IMG/VR virus record: IMGVR_UViG_3300027742_000001
Coordinates: 1 to 64,000 of that record
Length of the DNA: 64,000 nt
Source of the DNA: a virus
Direction: 5' to 3' (one strand)
Positions 38,414 to 49,428 of the stretch are shown here, piece by piece. Under the pieces are notes generated by a model. The model worked only from the letters and a program-made list of their open reading frames with translations. It was not told the origin of the DNA and ran no database searches. A program made the position numbers and the translations under genes. How positions within the stretch are numbered: position 1 is the stretch's first letter; each line of letters begins with the position of its first letter.

Positions 38414-39049
38414 TTACCCTTGAAATTTAATTACATTATATAATTTAATAACTCTATTTAACCAACCTTTTTGGAACTTAATATTAGAAGGTTTATATTC
38501 CACAGTTTCTAATATATCATCAACCCTTTCAATAAGTAAAGCATAAGCAATCTCTTGTTCAGAAACCTTTGAAAGAACTTTGTCTAAGGCTTTATATGAG
38601 TTAGTACCAACATAACCATCAACTTCAATATGTTCTTCTTTAGGTAAATTATTATTAATAATTTTTTGTAAGTTCTTACTTATTCTTTTGAAACCAAAAA
38701 GAACAGTTCCATCAGTTATTATTAAACCTAAATTAAAATCAAATCTTTCATAACCATATTTTTTATAATAGTTTGAGTAATAAAAGTCAGTAACTTTATC
38801 TTGAAATTCTACATTATTAGAGGTTTCTTTATTTATTTCTGCTGTAGAGTATCCTTTATCTAATAAAGAATCTATGTATTCCCAACCTTCCCATTTTGGG
38901 TGGAACTTTCTAGCAATACCTTGTATAGTCATTCCTCCACTATCTTCAGCTATATTAGAATATCCACCTTCAAATTTATTTATAAAAGAGTGTATCTTTT
39001 TAAACTTATCTAATTGATTTGTGTTTTCAGTATTTTTAGTGTTTTCCAT
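38414..39049 (-). CDS. Endolysin, glycoside hydrolase family 108 with peptidoglycan-binding C-terminus
   Basis: FEGGYSN..DSGGMT..GI, VDGYVG, KFQKGWLNR. Confidence 0.9.
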   Translation of the reverse strand: MENTKNTENTNQLDKFKKIHSFINKFEGGYSNIAEDSGGMTIQGIARKFHPKWEGWEYIDSLLDKGYSTAEINKETSNNVEFQDKVTDFYYSNYYKKYGYERFDFNLGLIITDGTVLFGFKRISKNLQKIINNNLPKEEHIEVDGYVGTNSYKALDKVLSKVSEQEIAYALLIERVDDILETVEYKPSNIKFQKGWLNRVIKLYNVIKFQG

Positions 39050-39068: not shown

Positions 39069-40487
39069 CTATCTGTATTTGAAGTTTAGCCCCACTACTC
39101 TTATATATTGAGTATCTGAATTAAAATCTACTGCTACATAACTTGTATTATCAATACCATTCATTAAATCTGTTATATCAAATTCATTTAAGTAACTATT
39201 ATTTACAAAAAGTTGTTTATTAGAAACTGTGTTTTCAGTATCATTATATTGTAATCCTATTCCCGATATACTTACTTCAATATCTGCTTGAATATATTCT
39301 GTATTATCAGGTAATACAACTATTGTACAAGAAACAATTTCATTAAAATCATTAGGTATTTTAATTATAAAATGAGTATCATTGTTAGAACCTAATCTTT
39401 CAACATTCCAATTACCTACTTCATAAGCATTTCCATTTTTAGGATACATAAAGAATTCTTTTATATCATTTCTTAAACATATACTTTGTACCTCAAAAGC
39501 ATTTCCATCAACAGCAATATAAGGAACATCTCCATCACCTAATAACTTAACAGTTCCACTTGAAACAAAGTCAATAGTATAATCTATTTGGAAAGGGTCT
39601 ATCATAAATAACATTGGGGAGTTTTCTATGTCAATAGTATTATCTCCAATAGTAAAGTCATAACCATTATCTCCATAAATACCATCTGAAATATTTCTCC
39701 AAGTAGCTTCATTTGGTAAATATTTTACAACAACATTTCCATTATTAACAGACTTTAATCTAACAGCTACATTATTAACTGCTTCAACAACTTTTAACTT
39801 AATTTTATTTATAATAATGTTTGAAGTTGAAGGTAACTCAAAACAACAATCATCTTCCATTTCCGTACTATAATCAGGTTGTAGCATTGTATCAGATACT
39901 TTTGCTTCTGTAACTAATGTAAAAGGTCTTTCTGAAGAGCCATTTTCTTTATCATAAAGGTGTAAAGGAATTAAATATCTATTACCACTTACATTAGAGT
40001 AAACACTTGGAATACTTCCTACCTCAGAAAGTTTAACAGAGTTTCCTACTTCGATACTTGCACTTTGTGACCTAAAGGTACTAGCACTCATAACAGTACC
40101 ATCATCTAAAACTTCCATACCCGAATCTTCAAAAGACTCTCCTAAAGCAGACTTAACTGGAATATGATTATTTCTAACACCTATTAACTCAGTTGTACTT
40201 CCATCTTGACCTTTAACAGCTATTACAGAAGATAATTTAGCCCATTCACTTTCTACTCTTGCTTGACTTTCTACAATATTTTCTGTACTTTCAGTATAAA
40301 CTAATTGAATACTTAATGAAGAATTATTATCATAACTTGCTAACCATGAAGCATTAGCTAAAGCATAATCATCTCTTTCTGTTTCAGCCTCTTCCTTTGT
40401 AGAGCCAACTCCACCAAATGAGTTAGGAGATTGTCCTAGGTTAAAAGTATTTAGTTGTATATTTTCTCTTGTTTTATATAAAGGCAT
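39069..40487 (-). CDS. Putative virion/fibre-associated beta-rich protein
   Basis: Acidic, S/T/N/V-rich composition like structural proteins; no firm family. Confidence 0.4.
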   Translation of the reverse strand: MPLYKTRENIQLNTFNLGQSPNSFGGVGSTKEEAETERDDYALANASWLASYDNNSSLSIQLVYTESTENIVESQARVESEWAKLSSVIAVKGQDGSTTELIGVRNNHIPVKSALGESFEDSGMEVLDDGTVMSASTFRSQSASIEVGNSVKLSEVGSIPSVYSNVSGNRYLIPLHLYDKENGSSERPFTLVTEAKVSDTMLQPDYSTEMEDDCCFELPSTSNIIINKIKLKVVEAVNNVAVRLKSVNNGNVVVKYLPNEATWRNISDGIYGDNGYDFTIGDNTIDIENSPMLFMIDPFQIDYTIDFVSSGTVKLLGDGDVPYIAVDGNAFEVQSICLRNDIKEFFMYPKNGNAYEVGNWNVERLGSNNDTHFIIKIPNDFNEIVSCTIVVLPDNTEYIQADIEVSISGIGLQYNDTENTVSNKQLFVNNSYLNEFDITDLMNGIDNTSYVAVDFNSDTQYIRVVGLNFKYR

Positions 40488-40488
40488 T

Positions 40489-40776
40489 TTAGTTTCCTTT
40501 CACAACTATTGTATCTGTTCCTTCAGAATATAACCAAAGACTTTCCCCTGAGTTATTTTCATAAATTCTATCTTCATAGTCTTCATTATCTAAAGCTGTA
40601 TCACTTAATATCCAAAATGGTTGATTTGAACTTGTATTAGGTATAGCAGTAGGAATATCTGTTCCTTCATAAGCCCAAATTCTAGTTCTACCTAGTGTTC
40701 TTACTTGATAATTTAAATCTGTTGTTGCTACTAATGTCCAAGTATCTTTTGGAATTTCTAAACTTGTATACGCCAT
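40489..40776 (-). CDS. Small hypothetical late protein
   Basis: AAGGA RBS; stop abuts the start of 39069..40487. Confidence 0.65.
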   Translation of the reverse strand: MAYTSLEIPKDTWTLVATTDLNYQVRTLGRTRIWAYEGTDIPTAIPNTSSNQPFWILSDTALDNEDYEDRIYENNSGESLWLYSEGTDTIVVKGN

Positions 40777-40802: not shown

Positions 40803-41021
40803 CTATTTACCACATTCTTCTAATTGTAATGATAATTTATATTGTTTTATCATCCAATCATTTACCTCTGAATCTTTTAAATCAAGAATCTTATTTGTAA
40901 CTTCACTTGAAGGAATGGGATAAGTAGGGCATATACTATTTATTTTCACCCCACACCCTACTAACATCATCAATACTGATATTAGACTCAGATATTTTAT
41001 TATATTCTTTAAGCTTTTCAT
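40803..41021 (-). CDS. o-spanin (Rz1-like lipoprotein)
   Basis: Lipobox LVGC, Pro-rich CPTYPIP, overlaps the upstream Rz-like ORF in another frame. Confidence 0.75.
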   Translation of the reverse strand: MKSLKNIIKYLSLISVLMMLVGCGVKINSICPTYPIPSSEVTNKILDLKDSEVNDWMIKQYKLSLQLEECGK

Positions 41022-41139
41022 TATCTTCCCTTAATTGTTCGTTTTCGGTATCTTGTTTAGCACTTCTCCAAACAAACAAAAAGGGTAAAACCTCTTTAAG
41101 TATATCAAACATTGTACTTATTAATTTTACCCAATCCAT
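40936..41139 (-). CDS. i-spanin (Rz-like)
   Basis: N-terminal hydrophobic segment plus short coiled coil; overlaps the o-spanin. Confidence 0.6.
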   Translation of the reverse strand: MDWVKLISTMFDILKEVLPFLFVWRSAKQDTENEQLREDNEKLKEYNKISESNISIDDVSRVWGENK

Positions 41140-41355
41140 ATTTTTCCTTTATATAGCTAATATATTCTCCAGCTCTTTTACTTTTTCTAAATCTTTTTCA
41201 GAAAATTTATAATCATTTTCCTTACCTTTAGAGTATTCATTTAAAGCCCATTTAGCATATAACTTTTGGTCTTTGATACTAAAAAAATTTAAGTTCTTTC
41301 CATTAGCTAAATCATATATTATAGCAGTTAATCTATCCATAATTTTCCTTTATAT

Positions 41356-41814
41356 TTAATCACACCAAGTTTTAACTTTCTTACCACCGTAGTATTCTAT
41401 TGCTAAGTTATTCTTTATTAACTCTTTTGTTAAAGAAACTTTTCCACAATAAGGTTCGGCAACTATTCTAAAATACTTACCTCTTTGGACTTTCTTTAAA
41501 ATAATACTTTCTTTACATTGTTTTAAAAAGTTATATGTAAAGTGCATAGCTACTAAAGACATTTCTTTTTCATAAGAGCATTTAGCACCTCTCTTTTCGG
41601 GAGTATCTACACCAAACACTCTTATTGAAATATTATTACCAATTAAGTTAGGGAAAGAGTTTATATTAACTCTAAAAGTATCTCCGTCATATACAGATAA
41701 GATTTTATTTACTTTAATATCTTTATATATTTGTTTCCCTAAAGTGTTGCTTGGTAAGAATATCAATAGTAATATAATTAATATACTACTTAACAGCTTT
41801 CTCAGCACTTGCAC
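41356..41814 (-). CDS. Thermonuclease (SNase family), exported or membrane-anchored
   Basis: YDGDT, IRVFGVDTPE, KYFRIVA; hydrophobic N-terminus. Confidence 0.9.
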   Translation of the reverse strand: MQVLRKLLSSILIILLLIFLPSNTLGKQIYKDIKVNKILSVYDGDTFRVNINSFPNLIGNNISIRVFGVDTPEKRGAKCSYEKEMSLVAMHFTYNFLKQCKESIILKKVQRGKYFRIVAEPYCGKVSLTKELIKNNLAIEYYGGKKVKTWCD

Positions 41815-42118
41815 CTACATTCTCAATTTGACCAAGTTTACTTTGAATAAGAGTTTCGATTGAATCACCATATTTTTCAATAACTTTTGGGTCAATTTTA
41901 TCAATGTATTCTTTTGCTGTTGCCATTTTTCCTGAGTACTCTATATTCTCAATTTTATTTTTAGCATAAGCCTCTGCAATTTCCTCTGCATAAGATATAG
42001 CATTAACAATTAATTTCTCAATATCTTCATTTTCAATTTTATCTTTAGCTAATATAACTAAATATCCAAACCCTACACTAAATAGTATTCCAACTATTGT
42101 TAATAATAATACTTCCAT
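41786..42118 (-). CDS. Holin (LL-H-like)
   Basis: One N-terminal TM, IVNAISYAEE..., K..TAKEYI, IETLIQS pattern. Confidence 0.65.
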   Translation of the reverse strand: MEVLLLTIVGILFSVGFGYLVILAKDKIENEDIEKLIVNAISYAEEIAEAYAKNKIENIEYSGKMATAKEYIDKIDPKVIEKYGDSIETLIQSKLGQIENVGASAEKAVK

Positions 42119-42152
42119 TTTATTTCCTTTTATTTTATTTGTTTAATATTTT

Positions 42153-42878
42153 TTAATACTGTAACTTATTTTTGTCACTTTCCTCAAGAACCTTTTGAAA
42201 ATCTCTTATGAACTCGGTTTCATAATCACTTAATAAAACTTTTAAAGAATCCATTTTAATATTCTTTCTTAAATTAGAAAACAATATTGTACTTACATCT
42301 TCAATAAATTTATCTTCTAAATAACTTTTCCTAAAATAATTACTTAGAACACCAATCTTTGAGCTAAACTTACTTAGTTTACTATTGAAGTAAAGTACTC
42401 TTCTTTGTACATCTGATTTAATCTTCTTTTTACAGTTAGTTATGTTTTTATCTTTAATACATTCTTGGGGATACCTTGCTGTTAAGAGTTTTTCATAATA
42501 AGATAATTCAACAGAATGGTGTACCTTTAACATATCTGTCATAATAATTACTGCTTGTTCATTATCTAAAGTAACTTTACCTACACTATCTCTTATAAGT
42601 TCTATTCTATTATCAATGTACTCAAAACTTCTTTCATAATTCTCTTGTAAATTATTTAAAGACCACCAAAGCACAGCTACTATGACAGACATTTCAGCAG
42701 TTTTTCTAGCACCCCACCATATTTGAGACTGTTTTTTATCTTTTTCTTTTTTCTTTTCAACTTGCTCAATTATATTATTTAACATATCTTCTAATAATAT
42801 ATGGTGGTCTTCTTTTTTCTCTTGGGCTTTTGATAAGTTGAATTTTTCATATTCTGTTATGTTATCTATTTCAGTCAT
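42153..42878 (-). CDS. Single-TM membrane protein (241 aa), function unknown
   Basis: Charged N-terminal 60 aa, hydrophobic MSVIVAVLWWSL, about 165 aa C-terminal domain with two Cys. Confidence 0.55.
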   Translation of the reverse strand: MTEIDNITEYEKFNLSKAQEKKEDHHILLEDMLNNIIEQVEKKKEKDKKQSQIWWGARKTAEMSVIVAVLWWSLNNLQENYERSFEYIDNRIELIRDSVGKVTLDNEQAVIIMTDMLKVHHSVELSYYEKLLTARYPQECIKDKNITNCKKKIKSDVQRRVLYFNSKLSKFSSKIGVLSNYFRKSYLEDKFIEDVSTILFSNLRKNIKMDSLKVLLSDYETEFIRDFQKVLEESDKNKLQY

Positions 42879-42890
42879 ATTAAGCCTTAA

Positions 42891-43376
42891 TTATATTATT
42901 TTTAGTAAGATTTGTTGAATTGCCTCATATGCTTGTCTATGTATGACTGTTTCTTTTAAAGTTTTTGTTTCAATAAGTTCCCATTCTCTATTAGTAAATA
43001 TTGTAATTAAGTCTTGAATAATGTTTCTTATTTCAAGGGGTTTAATATGAATTCTTCTTATACAAGGAAACTTTTCTAATTCATCTTTAAGTTGTTCATA
43101 TGCACTACATACTATAAAAGCTGTTTGCATTTGTAACTTAGATATTTCTTTTATAAGCTCTATTCCATTGACATTAGGCATTTTCATGTCTGTTACAACA
43201 ACCTTTATAGGTTTATTACTATTAAGTCTTTCCTTAAAAATATCTAATGCAACTTTTCCATCCTCAGCAGTAACTACATTAAAACCTATTGTTCTAAGTT
43301 GCTCTGCTGTTTTCTCTCTTATTAATACTTCATCTTCAACTAAAAGGATTTCAGTACTTGTTGTTTCTATAATCAT
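42891..43376 (-). CDS. CheY-like response regulator receiver protein with no output domain
   Basis: ILLVEDE, AEDG..AL, VVTDMKMPNVNGIEL, SAY, KP: acidic pocket, phospho-Asp, Ser and Lys all present. Confidence 0.92.
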   Translation of the reverse strand: MIIETTSTEILLVEDEVLIREKTAEQLRTIGFNVVTAEDGKVALDIFKERLNSNKPIKVVVTDMKMPNVNGIELIKEISKLQMQTAFIVCSAYEQLKDELEKFPCIRRIHIKPLEIRNIIQDLITIFTNREWELIETKTLKETVIHRQAYEAIQQILLKII

Positions 43377-43400
43377 TAGGAATTCCTTATAAAGTAGCTC

Positions 43401-43613
43401 TTACTCAGAAGGTTCAACATAATCTAATCCTTTAACATCAATATCCCAATATATTAAGTCAAACTCTCCTGCTGGATTAGGTGTATCAGAAATACAAGTA
43501 CAAGCACTCCCATTAAATAAAACCACTTCAGGGGTATAGTATCTTTTACCTGAATCACATCTACCTTTTATTGTACAATCTTTTCTTGCTCTAACATGAT
43601 TTGCATAAGACAT
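43401..43613 (-). CDS. Small late protein with a CBM5/12-like motif
   Basis: YYTPEVVLFNGSACTCI...W. Confidence 0.4.
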   Translation of the reverse strand: MSYANHVRARKDCTIKGRCDSGKRYYTPEVVLFNGSACTCISDTPNPAGEFDLIYWDIDVKGLDYVEPSE

Positions 43614-43616
43614 TTA

Positions 43617-44165
43617 TTACTCCTCTAGTCCAAATATTTCTTCAAATTTTTCTTGCTTAAGTGTTTCTGCATATGTCAATATCTCTTGGAGTTTAATTTT
43701 TGTTAACTGAATCCAATTATCCCCCTCTTTCCAAGGAATATATTCATTTGTTTCATTCCAACCATTCATTTTTTGATTAAGTTTTAGAAGATTTTCTGTT
43801 GTAACTTCTATGTTTACTGTATCACTAAATGGATAGTCTTCTATATCTTCGTTACAATATTTATCATAAGTTATATACTTGTCAGATTTTCCTTTCTGAG
43901 TTTTTATAATTTTTTCTCTTTTTGTCTCATTAAAAATAATAGAATTTGTTTCATCATCCCATTCCCAAGATTCTCTATATTCTGTTGGTATTTCAGTATG
44001 TTCTACTATGTGATATTTTACATACTCAGGCTGTTTATAAGTCAAAGCTAAATCATCTAATGTTTCAAAGTAATCATTCCAATTACTATTTGGAGTTGAG
44101 ATTGAAACTGACTTATTTATTTCTCCATTAATTACTTCTTCGTTTACATATACTATTACTTGCAT
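43617..44165 (-). CDS. Tail fibre assembly-like protein
   Basis: Directly after the fibre gene; IPTEYRESWEW and W...DNWIQLT motifs. Confidence 0.55.
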   Translation of the reverse strand: MQVIVYVNEEVINGEINKSVSISTPNSNWNDYFETLDDLALTYKQPEYVKYHIVEHTEIPTEYRESWEWDDETNSIIFNETKREKIIKTQKGKSDKYITYDKYCNEDIEDYPFSDTVNIEVTTENLLKLNQKMNGWNETNEYIPWKEGDNWIQLTKIKLQEILTYAETLKQEKFEEIFGLEE

Positions 44166-44174
44166 TTTATCTCC

Positions 44175-45005
44175 TTAACACACAAACATTACGTTTATAT
44201 TATTAGCATCACCAGCTCCTGATGATTGACCTGTTACAATTCTACATTGTGTAGTTGTTTTTAAAGATGGAGCATTCCCTAGTCCTGTACTTTTTAGCCC
44301 AAACGATGAAGGAGAATCATCTTCATTACAACCCGATACAGCATAATCAGCAGTAGGTAAAGCTGTTGCCATATTTATTGTATAATCTCCTGTTCCATTA
44401 TCTGTAATACTTGCTACGTTTCCATTATTTCTGATAGCAACTACACCTATACCATTAAAGTTTACCCATGCTCTAATTGCATATATTGGTGCTGTTCCAC
44501 TTGCATTTAAGGCTGTTTTTGCTCTTTCATCATTTGTAGTCCATGTAGTCTCTTCGGGTTTATCTTCATATTCTAGTTTACCACTAGATGTCTTATATAC
44601 TAATATCCTATCATTTGCAATATTAGTATCATCTATCTCTTTATCTTTTACTCCCCCTAAAATAATAGAATAGTTTGGTACTGTTGCTATAATATTAGAA
44701 CCACTTGTTATACTTGAAGTTGAAAATTGAATACTAGCCCCATTTAAAGAATCATCTATTATCTTGAAGTTTGTGTCTATAAATTCTGAAGATGAGGATT
44801 CTGCTAATTCATCAATAGCACTTTTTATATTATTACTTGACAACCCACTTGTTGTATTATCATATTCAATATTACTTGCAACTGTGGTACTATCAGTACC
44901 TAAACTATCTTCAATATATTGTCTAAAATCCTCAATATATGTTTTAAATTGACCTTGGGTTACATCATCTCTCCCAAGGTTATCTGCTTCTATTAATGTA
45001 CTCAT
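44175..45005 (-). CDS. Tail fibre protein
   Basis: YDNTTSGL...IKSAIDEL repeat; RAWVNFNG...NVASITDNGTGDYTIN C-terminal domain. Confidence 0.75.
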   Translation of the reverse strand: MSTLIEADNLGRDDVTQGQFKTYIEDFRQYIEDSLGTDSTTVASNIEYDNTTSGLSSNNIKSAIDELAESSSSEFIDTNFKIIDDSLNGASIQFSTSSITSGSNIIATVPNYSIILGGVKDKEIDDTNIANDRILVYKTSSGKLEYEDKPEETTWTTNDERAKTALNASGTAPIYAIRAWVNFNGIGVVAIRNNGNVASITDNGTGDYTINMATALPTADYAVSGCNEDDSPSSFGLKSTGLGNAPSLKTTTQCRIVTGQSSGAGDANNINVMFVC

Positions 45006-45045
45006 ATATTTCCTTTCATTAATACTTTTTAATTACTTAATTAAA

Positions 45046-48000
45046 CTAATTATTAATATACCCTTTTAATCGTATATCTACTAAACCTTCTACTTCACTA
45101 CCTAAATCATCAAAACATTTTAAAGTAGCACTTGTATTGGTTTTACTTATTACTTCTACTCGTGTAGCTGTACTTCCTATAAAACTTTGTAGAGTTGCTA
45201 CTACATTTTTTAAATTAGTTATATACTTAGTGTTTATGGTAGTACCTCCTATTAAGATATTTATATCCTCTAAACTTTCATCAATATCTTCTACATCTAC
45301 AATAATTTTTAATGCAGTTATACTTGGTCTAACTGTTCCCTCAATATAACTAACTCTAACTTCATATTGTCTAGTATATTGAACAGGGAAACCTCCTGTA
45401 TATAAATTCCAACCACTTTCTTCATACATCATATCTGAATCTGAACCATAAAAATTAAATACATCATTAGTATACATTGATAAAGGATAATACTCTCGAT
45501 ACTCTATTTTTTGACTTGCTGTACCTGAATACTCTATTAAAGCTGTTCCACTTCCATCAGGTATAAAAGAACCAATATAATACATAGGCTCAAATAATCC
45601 TTGATAAAAGTTCTCTCCATTATTTTTATCATAAAAAATATCTGAATCTAAATTATAATAAAAATATGCTGTTGAAGCTTCTGCTAATAAATCATTATTT
45701 GGTTGAACAACCCCTCCATAGATTTCTCCAATAAAACCTTCAGCATGATAATCTTTTTCATAAATAAGATTATCAATAAGAGTTTCTCCTTGGTTAAACT
45801 TAATATATTTTACATTTAAACTTTCATTTCCATATACATCAACAGCTTTTATAAGTAAGTTATACTGACCTTGAACTTTTGTAATATCGGCTTTATAAGG
45901 TGAGGTTTTAAGTATTCCTTCATGTATTTTAGTAGCAGTATTCCAATTTAAAGAATCCCCTACTTGATATTTAATAATATAACCACTTAAGTCAGGTGGC
46001 TTATTAATAATATCAAATACTAAAGTTTTAACCTCATTAGGTCTTCCACTAATTGTAAATATATCTACATCAGGAGGTAAAATATCATTGCCACTAACTG
46101 TATAACTTTGTTCAATAAAGTTACTTGGATTACCTATTTCTTGAATAAATATTCTATACCTATTTTCAATAAGTCCTGTATTTTCTGATATATAAGAACT
46201 CCCTTTTACATTTTTTCCTAAGTAAATTCTATTATCAGGAATATTAGGTAAAGGAGTTTCATCTTCACTAACAAAATCAGGGATAGCATAGATATTATAG
46301 GTACTTGTAGTAATTGCTGTCCAAGTAAATGTTAAAGTAATATTTGGGATACCAGCACTTGAAATATTCACATCTTCTGATATATTAAAAGTAAGCAACT
46401 CATTTGCAACTTCTAAAGAAGGAGTTATTGAGGTAATTAAATCATTATTATAATTAAAGTCTAAAATACTTGGGTTATAATCTGTTCCAGTAAACTTTGT
46501 ACTTAATTCTTTTCCAGTTCTTTTTACTTCAGTTAATCTTACTAAAAGAGCTTCATTATTATTCTCTCCAAAGATATAACTATTATAAACTTCTATATCA
46601 GAAGTATTAGGTAAAGGTATTGTATAAGTATCTGTTAAATCAGTATCCTCAATATAATAATCTGTAAAAGTATTATCTTGACTTTGTATCTTTAAAACAT
46701 ATACCTTATCAGAAGTTAAAGTAACAGGTTCTTCTAAAGTAACTTCTGAAGTATCTACTTCTTGAATTCTACCACCATTACCCCATAAAGGAACATCATT
46801 TTGAATAGCAACTATATCACCTACTTCACAAGTAACTCCTTTAATATCACTTTCCCAAGTGACTGTTCTTCTTTGGTACTTTGTAGTAGCTAACATATAT
46901 CTACCAAATACAATAGCTTCTGCTTTAGTAGTAATACCAACAGCATCTACTGTTGAGGTTTTAGGTGTAACTTTAGTATCATTTAAATCTTTATCAAGAA
47001 TGGTTACAGCATTAAGTTCATTTCTAATATCTTCATCAGGATATTGTATTTCTAACTCAGTTGCTAAATCTGATAAAGGAGTATAGCTTATTTGGAAACT
47101 TTCTTTTTTAATATCTCCAACATTAAACATATTTGTAATAGTTTGTATTCCATCAAAAACACATGTATACTTATTACCCCTAAGTAGTATTTGACCTCTA
47201 CCTAACTTACCTACCTTTTGACAAGCATCCCAAGGATTTGTTAGAGTATCAAAAGTTCCATTAAAGTTTAATTGTAAAGGATGTCCTAACTCTGTTAAGG
47301 TAATAAAATCTATACTAGCAAAATCTAATAAGAAATATATGTTAGTAATATTTGTGTCATTAAAATCTGAATTATAATCTTCAAAGGTGAATAAATAAAA
47401 CTCTCCACCAACATCTACACTATCAGTAATATCAATCAACCCATTATAAGAATATAATTCTCCATCATCCTTAGTTAGAGTAATTTGTGATAAACCTCTA
47501 TTATATGTAGATACTTCAATAGAAGTAATTTCTTGAATTATCTCAGATTTATAAACTTTTAATATATTCTCACTAGAATTATAAGTAAGTCTATCTGTAC
47601 TAAAGGTCTCATCAGAACTGATAATAGTTTCTTCTCTTATATGTTCTAAATCACAGAAACTAGCCCATTCAACAAATCTATCATAATCAATTTGAGAAGG
47701 TTTTATTTTAGCCCCATAGAAAGGATTAGTTAAAATATCATAACATACCCATGCTGGGTTATTATTTCTCGCTGTTATACTTTCAGTATAAATATCATTA
47801 GTATATAATGTCAAATCTTTTCTAGTTACTTTTGTAGTAATAGTTGGTATAGAACCCTCAATATGCTCAGTTGCTTTTAATTTTAAACCTAACTGTGCGA
47901 TACCTCCATAATTAATATCTGTTGTATTTATCTCCTCAATAAAGGAAACTTGCATAGTGGATTTAATATATATTGAACTAGGTATAGAACTCAATCTAGT

Positions 48001-49428
48001 GACTTTTACTTCATATTGCCCTAATTGTAAGGTTTCGTTTGAAAATATAGAACTTACATTAGGCTCTATACTAAAACTTATTGCTGAAGTTGAATTTCCT
48101 GAGTAGCTTAAAACTTCAGAATCCCCTATAAATATAGTTCTATAACTAATTCTATTTTCACTTTGTAACTCACCTTCAGTATATATAGGTTGATACTCAC
48201 AGGTATCGTCTGTACCACACATATTTGGAGTAGGGTTACTTATAGGAAAGGTGGAAGAATTATACTCTTTCCAATCTGTCCAATAAGAAATATATCTTGA
48301 GTTCCAATATGTATCTGTTGCATCCCTCTCATATATAGGATAACTAACAAAAACACTATATTGTTTTTGATATTTAGGTTCTTTAATATAAGTCCACTCA
48401 GTTTCTCCAACTAATCTATATCCTATACTATAATTTACTGAGTAAGTATTATAATTACCATTTGTAGTACTATAACTATAGAGACCATTTGGAAAAGAAA
48501 AATGTAATTTAAAGCTATCAATATTATCTGATTCAGTAGTAAATATATAAGGTTCATTATAATCTAAATTTCTGATAATATTCCCATTATTAAAAGTTGT
48601 ATCATCAAATCCATTCATAACTTCTTGTTCAAAAGTACCCCTAACTTGTTTAAAATATCCATCGCTTGTATCACTAATAAAACTATTATAAGGTTGCCCA
48701 TTTACATAAATATCAGCAGAATTTATTTCCTCAATTTCTCCGTAACATAAAGCTATTTGTAAAGATAACCAATCATCACTATTCTCATAATATTGTGATT
48801 TATTAATTTCTGTCCCACCTAGAACATGAGTACCATATAATACTGGTGTAGGTGAATTTACATCTCTATTAGTAGATATTCCGTCCCAAGAATATGTTTT
48901 AGAATCTGTCATATTATTAGACATATTTGCATCAGCATTTGGGTCACTTGGTGCTAACATTCTACTTATTAGCATCATACCACCAACAACAACTGCAAAA
49001 GCTACTACATAAGCTAAAGCTATGGCAATAGCTGAGGTTGCGGCGAAATAAGATATAATAGCACTAGCAATATACCCTACTGCCTCCCACTCTTGGTAAG
49101 GAAAATAAACTATAATATCTTTTTCTTGAACAATAATACTTTCTTGTTCTTCTTTTTCTTTAATAAGTTTACCATTATAAATAATACAATAATTAGTTTC
49201 ATCATATTCACTTGTCTGAACATATTCTATTAAAGGTTTCCCATGTAAAGCTGTTCTTTTTTTATTTATACTTAGTTTAAATGGATTAGGAATTTCTGTT
49301 ATAAAAACTGTACCAAAAGAAACTTTGTTAATATTTAAGTTTTTAATACTTTCTTTATAAGTATCTCTTATTTCAACAAAAGCTATTGAAGAAGGTACTA
49401 CTTGTTTAGCTTCTTTGTCTTTACTCAT
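45046..49428 (-). CDS. Tail tip / central fibre protein (lambda J-like, with fused I-like N-terminus)
   Basis: PVLYG, LCYGEIE, GQYEVKVTR, NNPAWVCYDILTN, GDIVAI; 1460 aa. Confidence 0.9.
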   Translation of the reverse strand: MSKDKEAKQVVPSSIAFVEIRDTYKESIKNLNINKVSFGTVFITEIPNPFKLSINKKRTALHGKPLIEYVQTSEYDETNYCIIYNGKLIKEKEEQESIIVQEKDIIVYFPYQEWEAVGYIASAIISYFAATSAIAIALAYVVAFAVVVGGMMLISRMLAPSDPNADANMSNNMTDSKTYSWDGISTNRDVNSPTPVLYGTHVLGGTEINKSQYYENSDDWLSLQIALCYGEIEEINSADIYVNGQPYNSFISDTSDGYFKQVRGTFEQEVMNGFDDTTFNNGNIIRNLDYNEPYIFTTESDNIDSFKLHFSFPNGLYSYSTTNGNYNTYSVNYSIGYRLVGETEWTYIKEPKYQKQYSVFVSYPIYERDATDTYWNSRYISYWTDWKEYNSSTFPISNPTPNMCGTDDTCEYQPIYTEGELQSENRISYRTIFIGDSEVLSYSGNSTSAISFSIEPNVSSIFSNETLQLGQYEVKVTRLSSIPSSIYIKSTMQVSFIEEINTTDINYGGIAQLGLKLKATEHIEGSIPTITTKVTRKDLTLYTNDIYTESITARNNNPAWVCYDILTNPFYGAKIKPSQIDYDRFVEWASFCDLEHIREETIISSDETFSTDRLTYNSSENILKVYKSEIIQEITSIEVSTYNRGLSQITLTKDDGELYSYNGLIDITDSVDVGGEFYLFTFEDYNSDFNDTNITNIYFLLDFASIDFITLTELGHPLQLNFNGTFDTLTNPWDACQKVGKLGRGQILLRGNKYTCVFDGIQTITNMFNVGDIKKESFQISYTPLSDLATELEIQYPDEDIRNELNAVTILDKDLNDTKVTPKTSTVDAVGITTKAEAIVFGRYMLATTKYQRRTVTWESDIKGVTCEVGDIVAIQNDVPLWGNGGRIQEVDTSEVTLEEPVTLTSDKVYVLKIQSQDNTFTDYYIEDTDLTDTYTIPLPNTSDIEVYNSYIFGENNNEALLVRLTEVKRTGKELSTKFTGTDYNPSILDFNYNNDLITSITPSLEVANELLTFNISEDVNISSAGIPNITLTFTWTAITTSTYNIYAIPDFVSEDETPLPNIPDNRIYLGKNVKGSSYISENTGLIENRYRIFIQEIGNPSNFIEQSYTVSGNDILPPDVDIFTISGRPNEVKTLVFDIINKPPDLSGYIIKYQVGDSLNWNTATKIHEGILKTSPYKADITKVQGQYNLLIKAVDVYGNESLNVKYIKFNQGETLIDNLIYEKDYHAEGFIGEIYGGVVQPNNDLLAEASTAYFYYNLDSDIFYDKNNGENFYQGLFEPMYYIGSFIPDGSGTALIEYSGTASQKIEYREYYPLSMYTNDVFNFYGSDSDMMYEESGWNLYTGGFPVQYTRQYEVRVSYIEGTVRPSITALKIIVDVEDIDESLEDINILIGGTTINTKYITNLKNVVATLQSFIGSTATRVEVISKTNTSATLKCFDDLGSEVEGLVDIRLKGYINN

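Follow-up and report, generated by a model that had tools for sequence, protein, structure and literature searches.

The DNA analyzed here is the first 64 kb of IMG/VR record IMGVR_UViG_3300027742_000001 (64,000 nucleotides, hereafter the window). The full record is 91,913 bp long, has direct terminal repeats, and represents a complete, uncultured phage with a G+C content of ~27%; no tRNA genes were found. Our main focus is on three adjacent minus-strand genes downstream of the tail-fibre genes, which encode a 161-aa response-regulator receiver, a 241-aa protein of unassigned family, and a 110-aa membrane protein (coordinates are given in Table 1). An original prediction, made from the letters of the window, had described these genes as the head of a lysis cassette and had proposed that the receiver times lysis. 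The minus-strand gene order it gave agrees with the list of open reading frames (ORFs), and its interpretation as a whole is partly supported by the results below.

The first of the three genes encodes a stand-alone receiver. The protein matches Pfam PF00072 at 62.6 bits (cut-off 30.2, E = 4.6e-17; 62.9 bits in the genome search), and its AlphaFold2 (AF2) model, with a predicted local distance difference test (pLDDT) score of 79, shows five strands alternating with five helices, the (beta-alpha)5 arrangement, in a core of residues 9-129, followed by an extra C-terminal helix at about 140-160 of lower confidence. In Foldseek, the receivers of 3jte, CpxR and RssB lead the matches at a root-mean-square deviation (rmsd) of ~2 Å; for 3jte, the target-normalised template-modelling (TM) score is 0.85 and the rmsd 2.2 Å. 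Residues E14, D15, D63, S91 and K112 are invariant in all six sequences of the receiver family, as expected from the earlier description of a receiver-only regulator with its catalytic residues kept. In a profile alignment to PDB entry 3JTE, E14 and D15 fall on the DD pair, S91 on the conserved Thr and K112-P113 on the Lys-Pro; D63 falls on the phospho-Asp and is the predicted phospho-acceptor. The five metagenomic homologues (58-66% identity, 158-166 aa) retain every active-site residue. Conservation in the family also extends into the C-terminal tail (R130, E131, W132, Y150, A152, I153, Q154 and I156), a basic, amphipathic segment whose hydrophobic moment over 18 residues is 0.44-0.70.

An output domain is absent: family members of 158-166 aa have one helix after alpha5 and no second Pfam domain, a statement that holds for proteins of up to 282 aa, the range covered by the family search, and not for fused forms above that length. 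An ANTAR-like reading of the tail was dropped, as it has no Pfam match and consists of a single helix, and on inspection the distant matches that seemed to span the tail were multidomain regulators of the REC-PP2C and NtrC types. Similarly, the absence of a histidine kinase, which had been noted for the window, holds for the whole 91,913-bp genome, in which a search at E <= 1 gave no HATPase_c, HisKA or Hpt match; the receiver would therefore rely on host donors. It is thus an orphan: a single-domain response regulator whose phosphorylation pocket is intact, in a phage without a kinase. As a separate observation, a hydrophobic ORF (74-87 aa) lies antisense over the 5' half of the receiver gene and recurs in two relatives. 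It is most likely not a gene, and more simply seen as a by-product of conserved sense sequence in AT-rich DNA.

The second gene encodes a protein of 241 aa with a disordered, charged N-terminal stretch of ~55 aa, a weakly hydrophobic helix at about 53-73, and a helical bundle at about 100-240. AF2 models the C-terminal bundle at a pLDDT of 76-92 and predicts the N-terminal tail to be disordered. Within this tail lies a motif, F-N-x2-K-x2-E-K-x-E-D, in which F13, N14, K17, E20, K21, E23 and D24 are invariant, and the C-terminal domain carries a conserved Cys pair (C140, C149). The protein belongs to no Pfam, PHROG or NCBIfam family, its single Pfam match at E <= 0.1 being a chance match to ZapA, and a search of 24 relatives against PHROGs gave nothing but one marginal match to phrog_4898; it therefore has no match to any holin family model. 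Fold searches returned only generic helical bundles (Foldseek against PDB, E >= 0.15; uncharacterised proteins in BFVD; VIA, Z <= 9.6) and the ESM Atlas only unnamed clusters. In an exhaustive profile search we recovered one close cluster and 18 distant relatives. The latter are 145-212 aa long, align from the hydrophobic helix to the C-terminus (E 7e-11 to 6e-4), and, in the alignment, have a moderately hydrophobic N-terminal anchor preceded by 10-15 residues. The ~55-residue charged tail and the Cys pair are absent from these distant relatives and present in the receiver-linked subfamily only.

The original prediction had assigned this protein a single transmembrane segment, which our hydropathy analysis does not bear out. 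Its best 19-residue segment has a Kyte-Doolittle value of 0.85 and a Hessa-scale sum of +8.5, compared to +11.5 for the receiver and +9.4 for the endolysin, both soluble, and -1.9 for the transmembrane segment of the 110-aa protein; the hydrophobic core comprises about 12-13 apolar residues between charged positions. Because this score is like that of soluble segments, we do not regard a single transmembrane segment as shown. The 241-aa protein may be peripheral or soluble, or its helix may be inserted only with help.

The third gene encodes a 110-aa protein with a transmembrane segment at residues 3-24. An N-terminal acidic dipeptide ("ME") precedes this segment, and a Lys cluster and then a charged helical domain follow it; given the dipeptide and the Lys cluster, the predicted topology is N-out/C-in. 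At 71-75% identity, its family is the most conserved of the three. It had been called an LL-H-like holin, and the resemblance to Holin_LLH (PF09682, holin superfamily 6) holds for its length of about 110 aa, its N-terminal transmembrane segment, its charged helical C-terminus and its place in the lysis region. The ESM Atlas agrees: PF09682 accounts for 23 of its 30 nearest clusters there, at 0.91-0.92 and with 191-195 features in common. The formal family assignment does not stand: the family scores below the gathering threshold, with no Pfam match for the window protein, which does not reach the Holin_LLH threshold, and 14.2 bits against a cut-off of 24.9 for the copy on contig L005. A genome-wide hydropathy scan identified the 110-aa protein as the sole strongly hydrophobic small late-strand ORF near the lysis genes, besides the signal sequence of a nuclease (SNase) and a lipoprotein. 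Given this position, the PF09682 likeness and an endolysin that lacks an export signal, the 110-aa protein is the best candidate for a distant LL-H-type holin, with putative hole formation. In the same scan, other small transmembrane ORFs occurred only in plus-strand early regions. Two small plus-strand ORFs from the early/middle region, one of 67 aa with two strongly hydrophobic segments and one of 113 aa with one strongly hydrophobic N-terminal segment, encode possible membrane proteins that are alternative holin-like candidates far from the endolysin.

The three genes lie in a late gene run. The coding strand switches near 38 kb of the window, and from 38.4 kb to the window end the ORFs are mostly on the minus strand, including the identified structural genes: a candidate major head protein (weak PHROG match), a tape measure, minor tail proteins, and a 1460-aa J-like central tail fibre together with a 276-aa tail-fibre protein (PHROGs). 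On the 3' side of the tail fibres, the order is a 182-aa gene, a 70-aa gene, the receiver, the 241-aa gene, the 110-aa gene, the SNase, ORFs of 63, 67 and 72 aa, genes of 95 and 472 aa, and the endolysin. The upstream gene is separated from the receiver by 24 nt, the receiver from the 241-aa gene by 12 nt, and the latter from the 110-aa gene by 34 nt; a Shine-Dalgarno-like AAGG(A) precedes each of the three, and a terminator scan around them found no minus-strand terminator-like site. With these short gaps, putative ribosome-binding sites and no such terminator, the three genes look like part of a late transcription unit.

The same three genes stay together in diverged metagenomic relatives (48-75% identity). 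On the 2.6 kb JGI contig L005, a 278-aa DUF7338-like membrane protein (sub-threshold match) is followed by the receiver, the 241-aa homologue and the 110-aa homologue, in that order. Contig L004 carries an 86-aa ORF, the receiver and the start of the 241-aa homologue, and L006 a 221-aa ORF and then the receiver to the contig end. Nowhere in this phage is there a homologue of the upstream proteins on L004-L006; the left flanks thus differ and the triad stays together. Indirect evidence comes from equal contig sizes in cluster look-ups, which place the three families together on contigs of 27,320, 36,228, 3,533, 2,675 and 45,071 bp and, by the same size matching, the receiver and the 241-aa homologue together on a 3,345-bp contig; chance is an unlikely source of such matches across three families. 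In every relative long enough to show it, the 110-aa homologue accompanies the receiver/241-aa pair. A lack of conserved linkage in related phages, which had been named as a finding that would speak against a lysis module, is therefore not what we see, given the triad order on L005 and the pair on L004. The receiver lineages are absent from IMG/VR, INPHARED and GTDB genomes: IMG/VR scans with the receiver, the 241-aa and 110-aa proteins, their alignments and distant relatives as queries found no family member; tblastn against INPHARED gave only generic receiver matches for the receiver and none for the 241-aa protein or its distant relative P0032; and scans of GTDB genomes found no 110-aa family member.

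The receiver is also not a recent, near-identical capture from a host, the other finding that had been named as counter-evidence. The nearest receivers outside the family, in JGI metagenomes and 185,579 GTDB species genomes, are 25-45% identical, and those that were read are REC-PP2C or NtrC-type multidomain regulators. The pairwise ratio of nonsynonymous to synonymous substitution rates (dN/dS) of the receiver is 0.09 for the closest pair and 0.28-0.37 for saturated pairs, compared to 0.16-0.26 for the 241-aa gene and 0.33 for the 110-aa gene. The low identity of the best cellular matches and these ratios together argue against a recent host capture, and the three-gene module is under purifying selection. 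Overall, these results suggest a single conserved module made up of the receiver, the helical 241-aa protein and the LL-H-like 110-aa membrane protein, late expression being read from its position.

How does this receiver compare to known ones? CheY (with FliM), DivK, CpdR and Spo0F are likewise receiver-only proteins with an intact phosphorylation quintet, an architecture in which output must go through protein-protein contact. CheY binds an N-terminal peptide of FliM, and it is tempting to see a parallel in the short conserved peptide of the 241-aa tail. Unlike these proteins, the phage receiver has an extra conserved amphipathic C-terminal helix, resides in a virulent-type phage without a cognate kinase, and has as fixed neighbours a helical 241-aa protein and a holin candidate. 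Its best matches in both sequence and structure are the REC-PP2C receivers of Clostridium thermocellum (3JTE) and Pseudomonas RssB (3EQ2/3F7A), with profile E values of 2.5e-14 and 6.8e-13 and Foldseek ranks 1 and 3, respectively, and the alignment enters the helix after alpha5. However, identity to these is only about 27-28%, and the phage receiver lacks a PP2C output domain and ends after one helix.

The closest parallel in a cultured phage is Alteromonas phage vB_AmeP_R8W (MW043865), whose G48 was published as a "PhoB" auxiliary gene (PMC8228385). There, gp46 is an annotated class II holin, gp47 is a 98-aa protein with an N-terminal transmembrane segment and a charged helix, gp48 is a 153-aa receiver with a C-terminal tail (PF00072, E = 1.5e-21), and gp49 is a 130-aa membrane protein. 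The design resembles that of our phage: the R8W receiver is flanked by a helical protein with an N-terminal transmembrane segment and a membrane protein, directly after the holin. R8W differs in being a podovirus with another gene order; the two receivers share just a 62-residue local match of 35% identity, and its partner proteins have no detectable homology to the 241-aa and 110-aa proteins. Given the weak receiver match and the non-homologous partners, R8W appears to be an analogous design, probably of independent origin. The annotation of gp48 as a "DNA-binding response regulator" looks wrong, because Pfam detects a receiver domain only. Until now, annotation has treated receivers in phages as auxiliary genes of a "PhoB" or "CheY-like" kind and ignored their position (PMC8228385), and a full-text literature search did not find the phrase "phage-encoded response regulator". 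The "Receiver domain" of a paper on the phage N4 pinholin is an ad hoc name, unrelated to two-component receivers. What is new here is a single-domain response regulator in an undescribed lysis-linked phage module; the kind of response regulator itself is known.

We consider the best explanation to be a late three-gene module in which the phospho-state of the receiver tunes holin triggering, and we would give it a probability of about 40%. A host histidine kinase or acetyl phosphate would phosphorylate the phage receiver, which would then act through contacts with other proteins on the cytoplasmic side of the inner membrane, where all three proteins could meet if the C-terminal domain of the 110-aa protein is cytoplasmic, as predicted. 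The likely contact surfaces of the receiver would be its alpha4-beta5-alpha5 face and the extra amphipathic helix. Its likely targets would be, in the 241-aa protein, the conserved acidic/basic N-terminal tail that is unique to the receiver-linked subfamily, and the cytoplasmic C-terminal domain of the 110-aa holin candidate. Binding to either or both could make the holin trigger earlier or later, and lysis time would thereby be coupled to the energetic or envelope-signalling state of the host. A broader proposal, that the receiver gates lysis via the 241-aa protein as an adaptor and that by convergence the same maybe holds in other phages with a receiver beside a membrane-tethered helical partner among the lysis genes, is possible but doubtful.

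Holin timing decides burst size and phage fitness, and to our knowledge the known regulators of holin timing are either antiholins that read superinfection, such as T4 RI and RIII, or dual-start antiholins. If the proposed explanation is true, the phage would read the signalling or energy state of its host (kinase activity or the acetyl-phosphate pool) to pick the moment of lysis. Such regulation would depend on phosphorylation and take place in the cytoplasm, in contrast to the periplasmic control of T by RI, and on the broader proposal above it would amount to a new class of holin regulation. T4 holin T with its antiholins shares with our module only the concept that holin timing is modulated by a signal-reading partner. 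The triad also offers a small testable system consisting of a receiver, a partner with a receiver-specific N-terminal tail, and a holin candidate.

Several observations weigh against a role in lysis timing. This role is suggested by gene position and synteny alone; there are about seven diverged receiver lineages in all, every one uncultured; and the match of the holin candidate to PF09682 is sub-threshold in the three of five family members that show it (E 0.03-0.06). The cassette is also not compact, in that the nuclease, small ORFs and genes of 95 and 472 aa come between the 110-aa gene and the endolysin. Moreover, the siphovirus region just downstream of the tail-fibre genes is a known site of accessory ("moron") genes, and the receiver and 241-aa genes come directly after the tail-fibre genes. 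They could be an accessory pair with a role outside lysis, placed beside the holin simply because the late operon is permissive at this point; possible roles would be a late phosphate sink or decoy that dampens a host two-component pathway (envelope stress, motility or defence induction), or superinfection exclusion. The scattering of the lysis genes among others fits such a pair, as do the generic NtrC/RssB-like type of the receiver and the labelling of published phage receivers as auxiliary "PhoB" genes (PMC8228385). However, the 110-aa candidate co-travels with the pair in every relative long enough despite differing upstream genes, late co-expression is a poor fit with host takeover, and R8W has independently placed a receiver beside its holin. 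We therefore regard an accessory pair as rather unlikely.

The remaining alternatives concern what the receiver and the 241-aa protein do together. In the original prediction, the latter was likened to T4 holin T, and as a T-like holin or antiholin it would have an N-in single transmembrane segment, a large periplasmic domain, and a cytoplasmic N-terminal tail to which the receiver binds. The Lys-rich stretch (net +5) before the hydrophobic helix and the conserved Cys pair are compatible with an N-in/C-out topology; the helix is flanked by WW pairs, the two invariant Cys could form a periplasmic disulfide, and the N-terminal motif is conserved. Yet the short core and soluble-like insertion score speak against it, the C-terminal domain is a generic helical bundle, the distant relatives look N-out/C-in, and similarity to T in sequence or fold is lacking, as is a Pfam or PHROG match to holin families. 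The analogy is thus weak, and such a holin is improbable. Still less probable is that the bundle is an enzymatic partner of the receiver, a non-canonical phosphotransfer protein or phosphatase, and the pair a self-contained signalling unit. H120 is invariant in the receiver-linked subfamily, and the 12-nt gap is compatible with translational coupling; in distant relatives, this His is the consensus without being invariant and is replaced by Y, A or Q in several of them. There is no H-box or HxxKG-like motif around H120, and no Hpt or HisKA match in the genome (E <= 1) or among 24 family members. The receiver could finally be an RssB/CpdR-like adaptor that, depending on its phosphorylation, hands a protein of the host or phage over to an AAA+ protease of the host. 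RssB and CpdR are among its best NCBIfam and PDB profile matches, and the RssB alignment reaches the linker helix, but many other receiver families give scores that cannot be told apart from these, a PP2C-like or other adaptor domain is absent, and nothing indicates a substrate, which makes this reading very improbable.

Table 1. Coordinates of the features discussed; positions refer to the window unless a contig or accession is given.
Feature	Coordinates	Strand	Basis or remark
Stand-alone response-regulator receiver, 161 aa	42891..43376	(-)	PF00072, family alignment, AF2, Foldseek, PDB profile alignment
241-aa protein, family unassigned	42153..42878	(-)	alignments, AF2, hydropathy; start 12 nt after receiver stop
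110-aa protein, N-terminal transmembrane segment and charged helical C-terminal domain	41786..42118	(-)	hydropathy, sub-threshold PF09682, ESM Atlas
SNase-like protein, 152 aa	41356..41814	(-)	PF00565, phrog_452, hydropathy
63-aa and 67-aa ORFs	40936-41340	(-)	same frame
Possible spanin pair: 67-aa ORF and 72-aa lipoprotein	40936-41139 and 40803-41021	(-)	ORFs, hydropathy
95-aa and 472-aa genes	39069-40776	(-)	
Endolysin, GH108 and PG_binding_3	38414..39049	(-)	Pfam, phrog_315
Upstream late genes: J-like central tail fibre (1460 aa), tail-fibre protein (276 aa), unknowns (182 aa and 70 aa)	43401..49428	(-)	PHROGs, ORFs
Antisense ORF over receiver gene	43168-43392	(+)	
Antisense ORF over receiver gene in relatives	L005 871-1134; L004 452-679	(-)	
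Genes upstream of receiver in relatives	L005 75-911; L006 114-779; L004 223-483		membrane proteins
Small ORF, 67 aa	22721-22924	(+)	two strongly hydrophobic segments
Small ORF, 113 aa	34777-35118	(+)	one strongly hydrophobic N-terminal segment
R8W gp46-gp49	MW043865 7920-9286		between tail fibre gp45 and terminase genes

Downstream of the triad, the prediction of a GH108 endolysin is borne out by GH108 and PG_binding_3 domains. Hydropathy analysis of this endolysin detected no signal or signal-anchor-release (SAR) sequence, so it would need a hole-forming holin. The exported SNase that had been proposed is likewise consistent with its PF00565 match and hydrophobic, signal-peptide-like N-terminus (MQVLRKLLSSILIILLLIFLPSNTLG), from which export is probable. 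The SNase gene is located after that of the holin candidate and ahead of that of the lipoprotein, and begins with a GTG codon inside the 110-aa gene, with an overlap of 29 nt. It is unusual for a lysis region to contain an exported nuclease, which might serve to break down DNA in the periplasm or outside the cell.

Spanins had also been proposed, and here the two halves of the pair fare differently. The 72-aa ORF has a signal sequence with the lipobox LVGC and overlaps the 67-aa ORF by 86 nt. The 67-aa ORF, the would-be i-spanin, has no convincing transmembrane segment (Hessa-scale sum +7.7). It shares its frame with the 63-aa ORF, the two being separated by one stop codon and three codons, and as a transmembrane segment is lacking in both, it is doubtful that the 67-aa ORF encodes an i-spanin. 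The lysis genes are split by the 95-aa and 472-aa genes, located between the lipoprotein gene and that of the endolysin. In the 472-aa protein, a PHROG match (phrog_20050, of unknown function) is confined to residues 11-97, and this protein may be a second fibre or receptor-binding protein.

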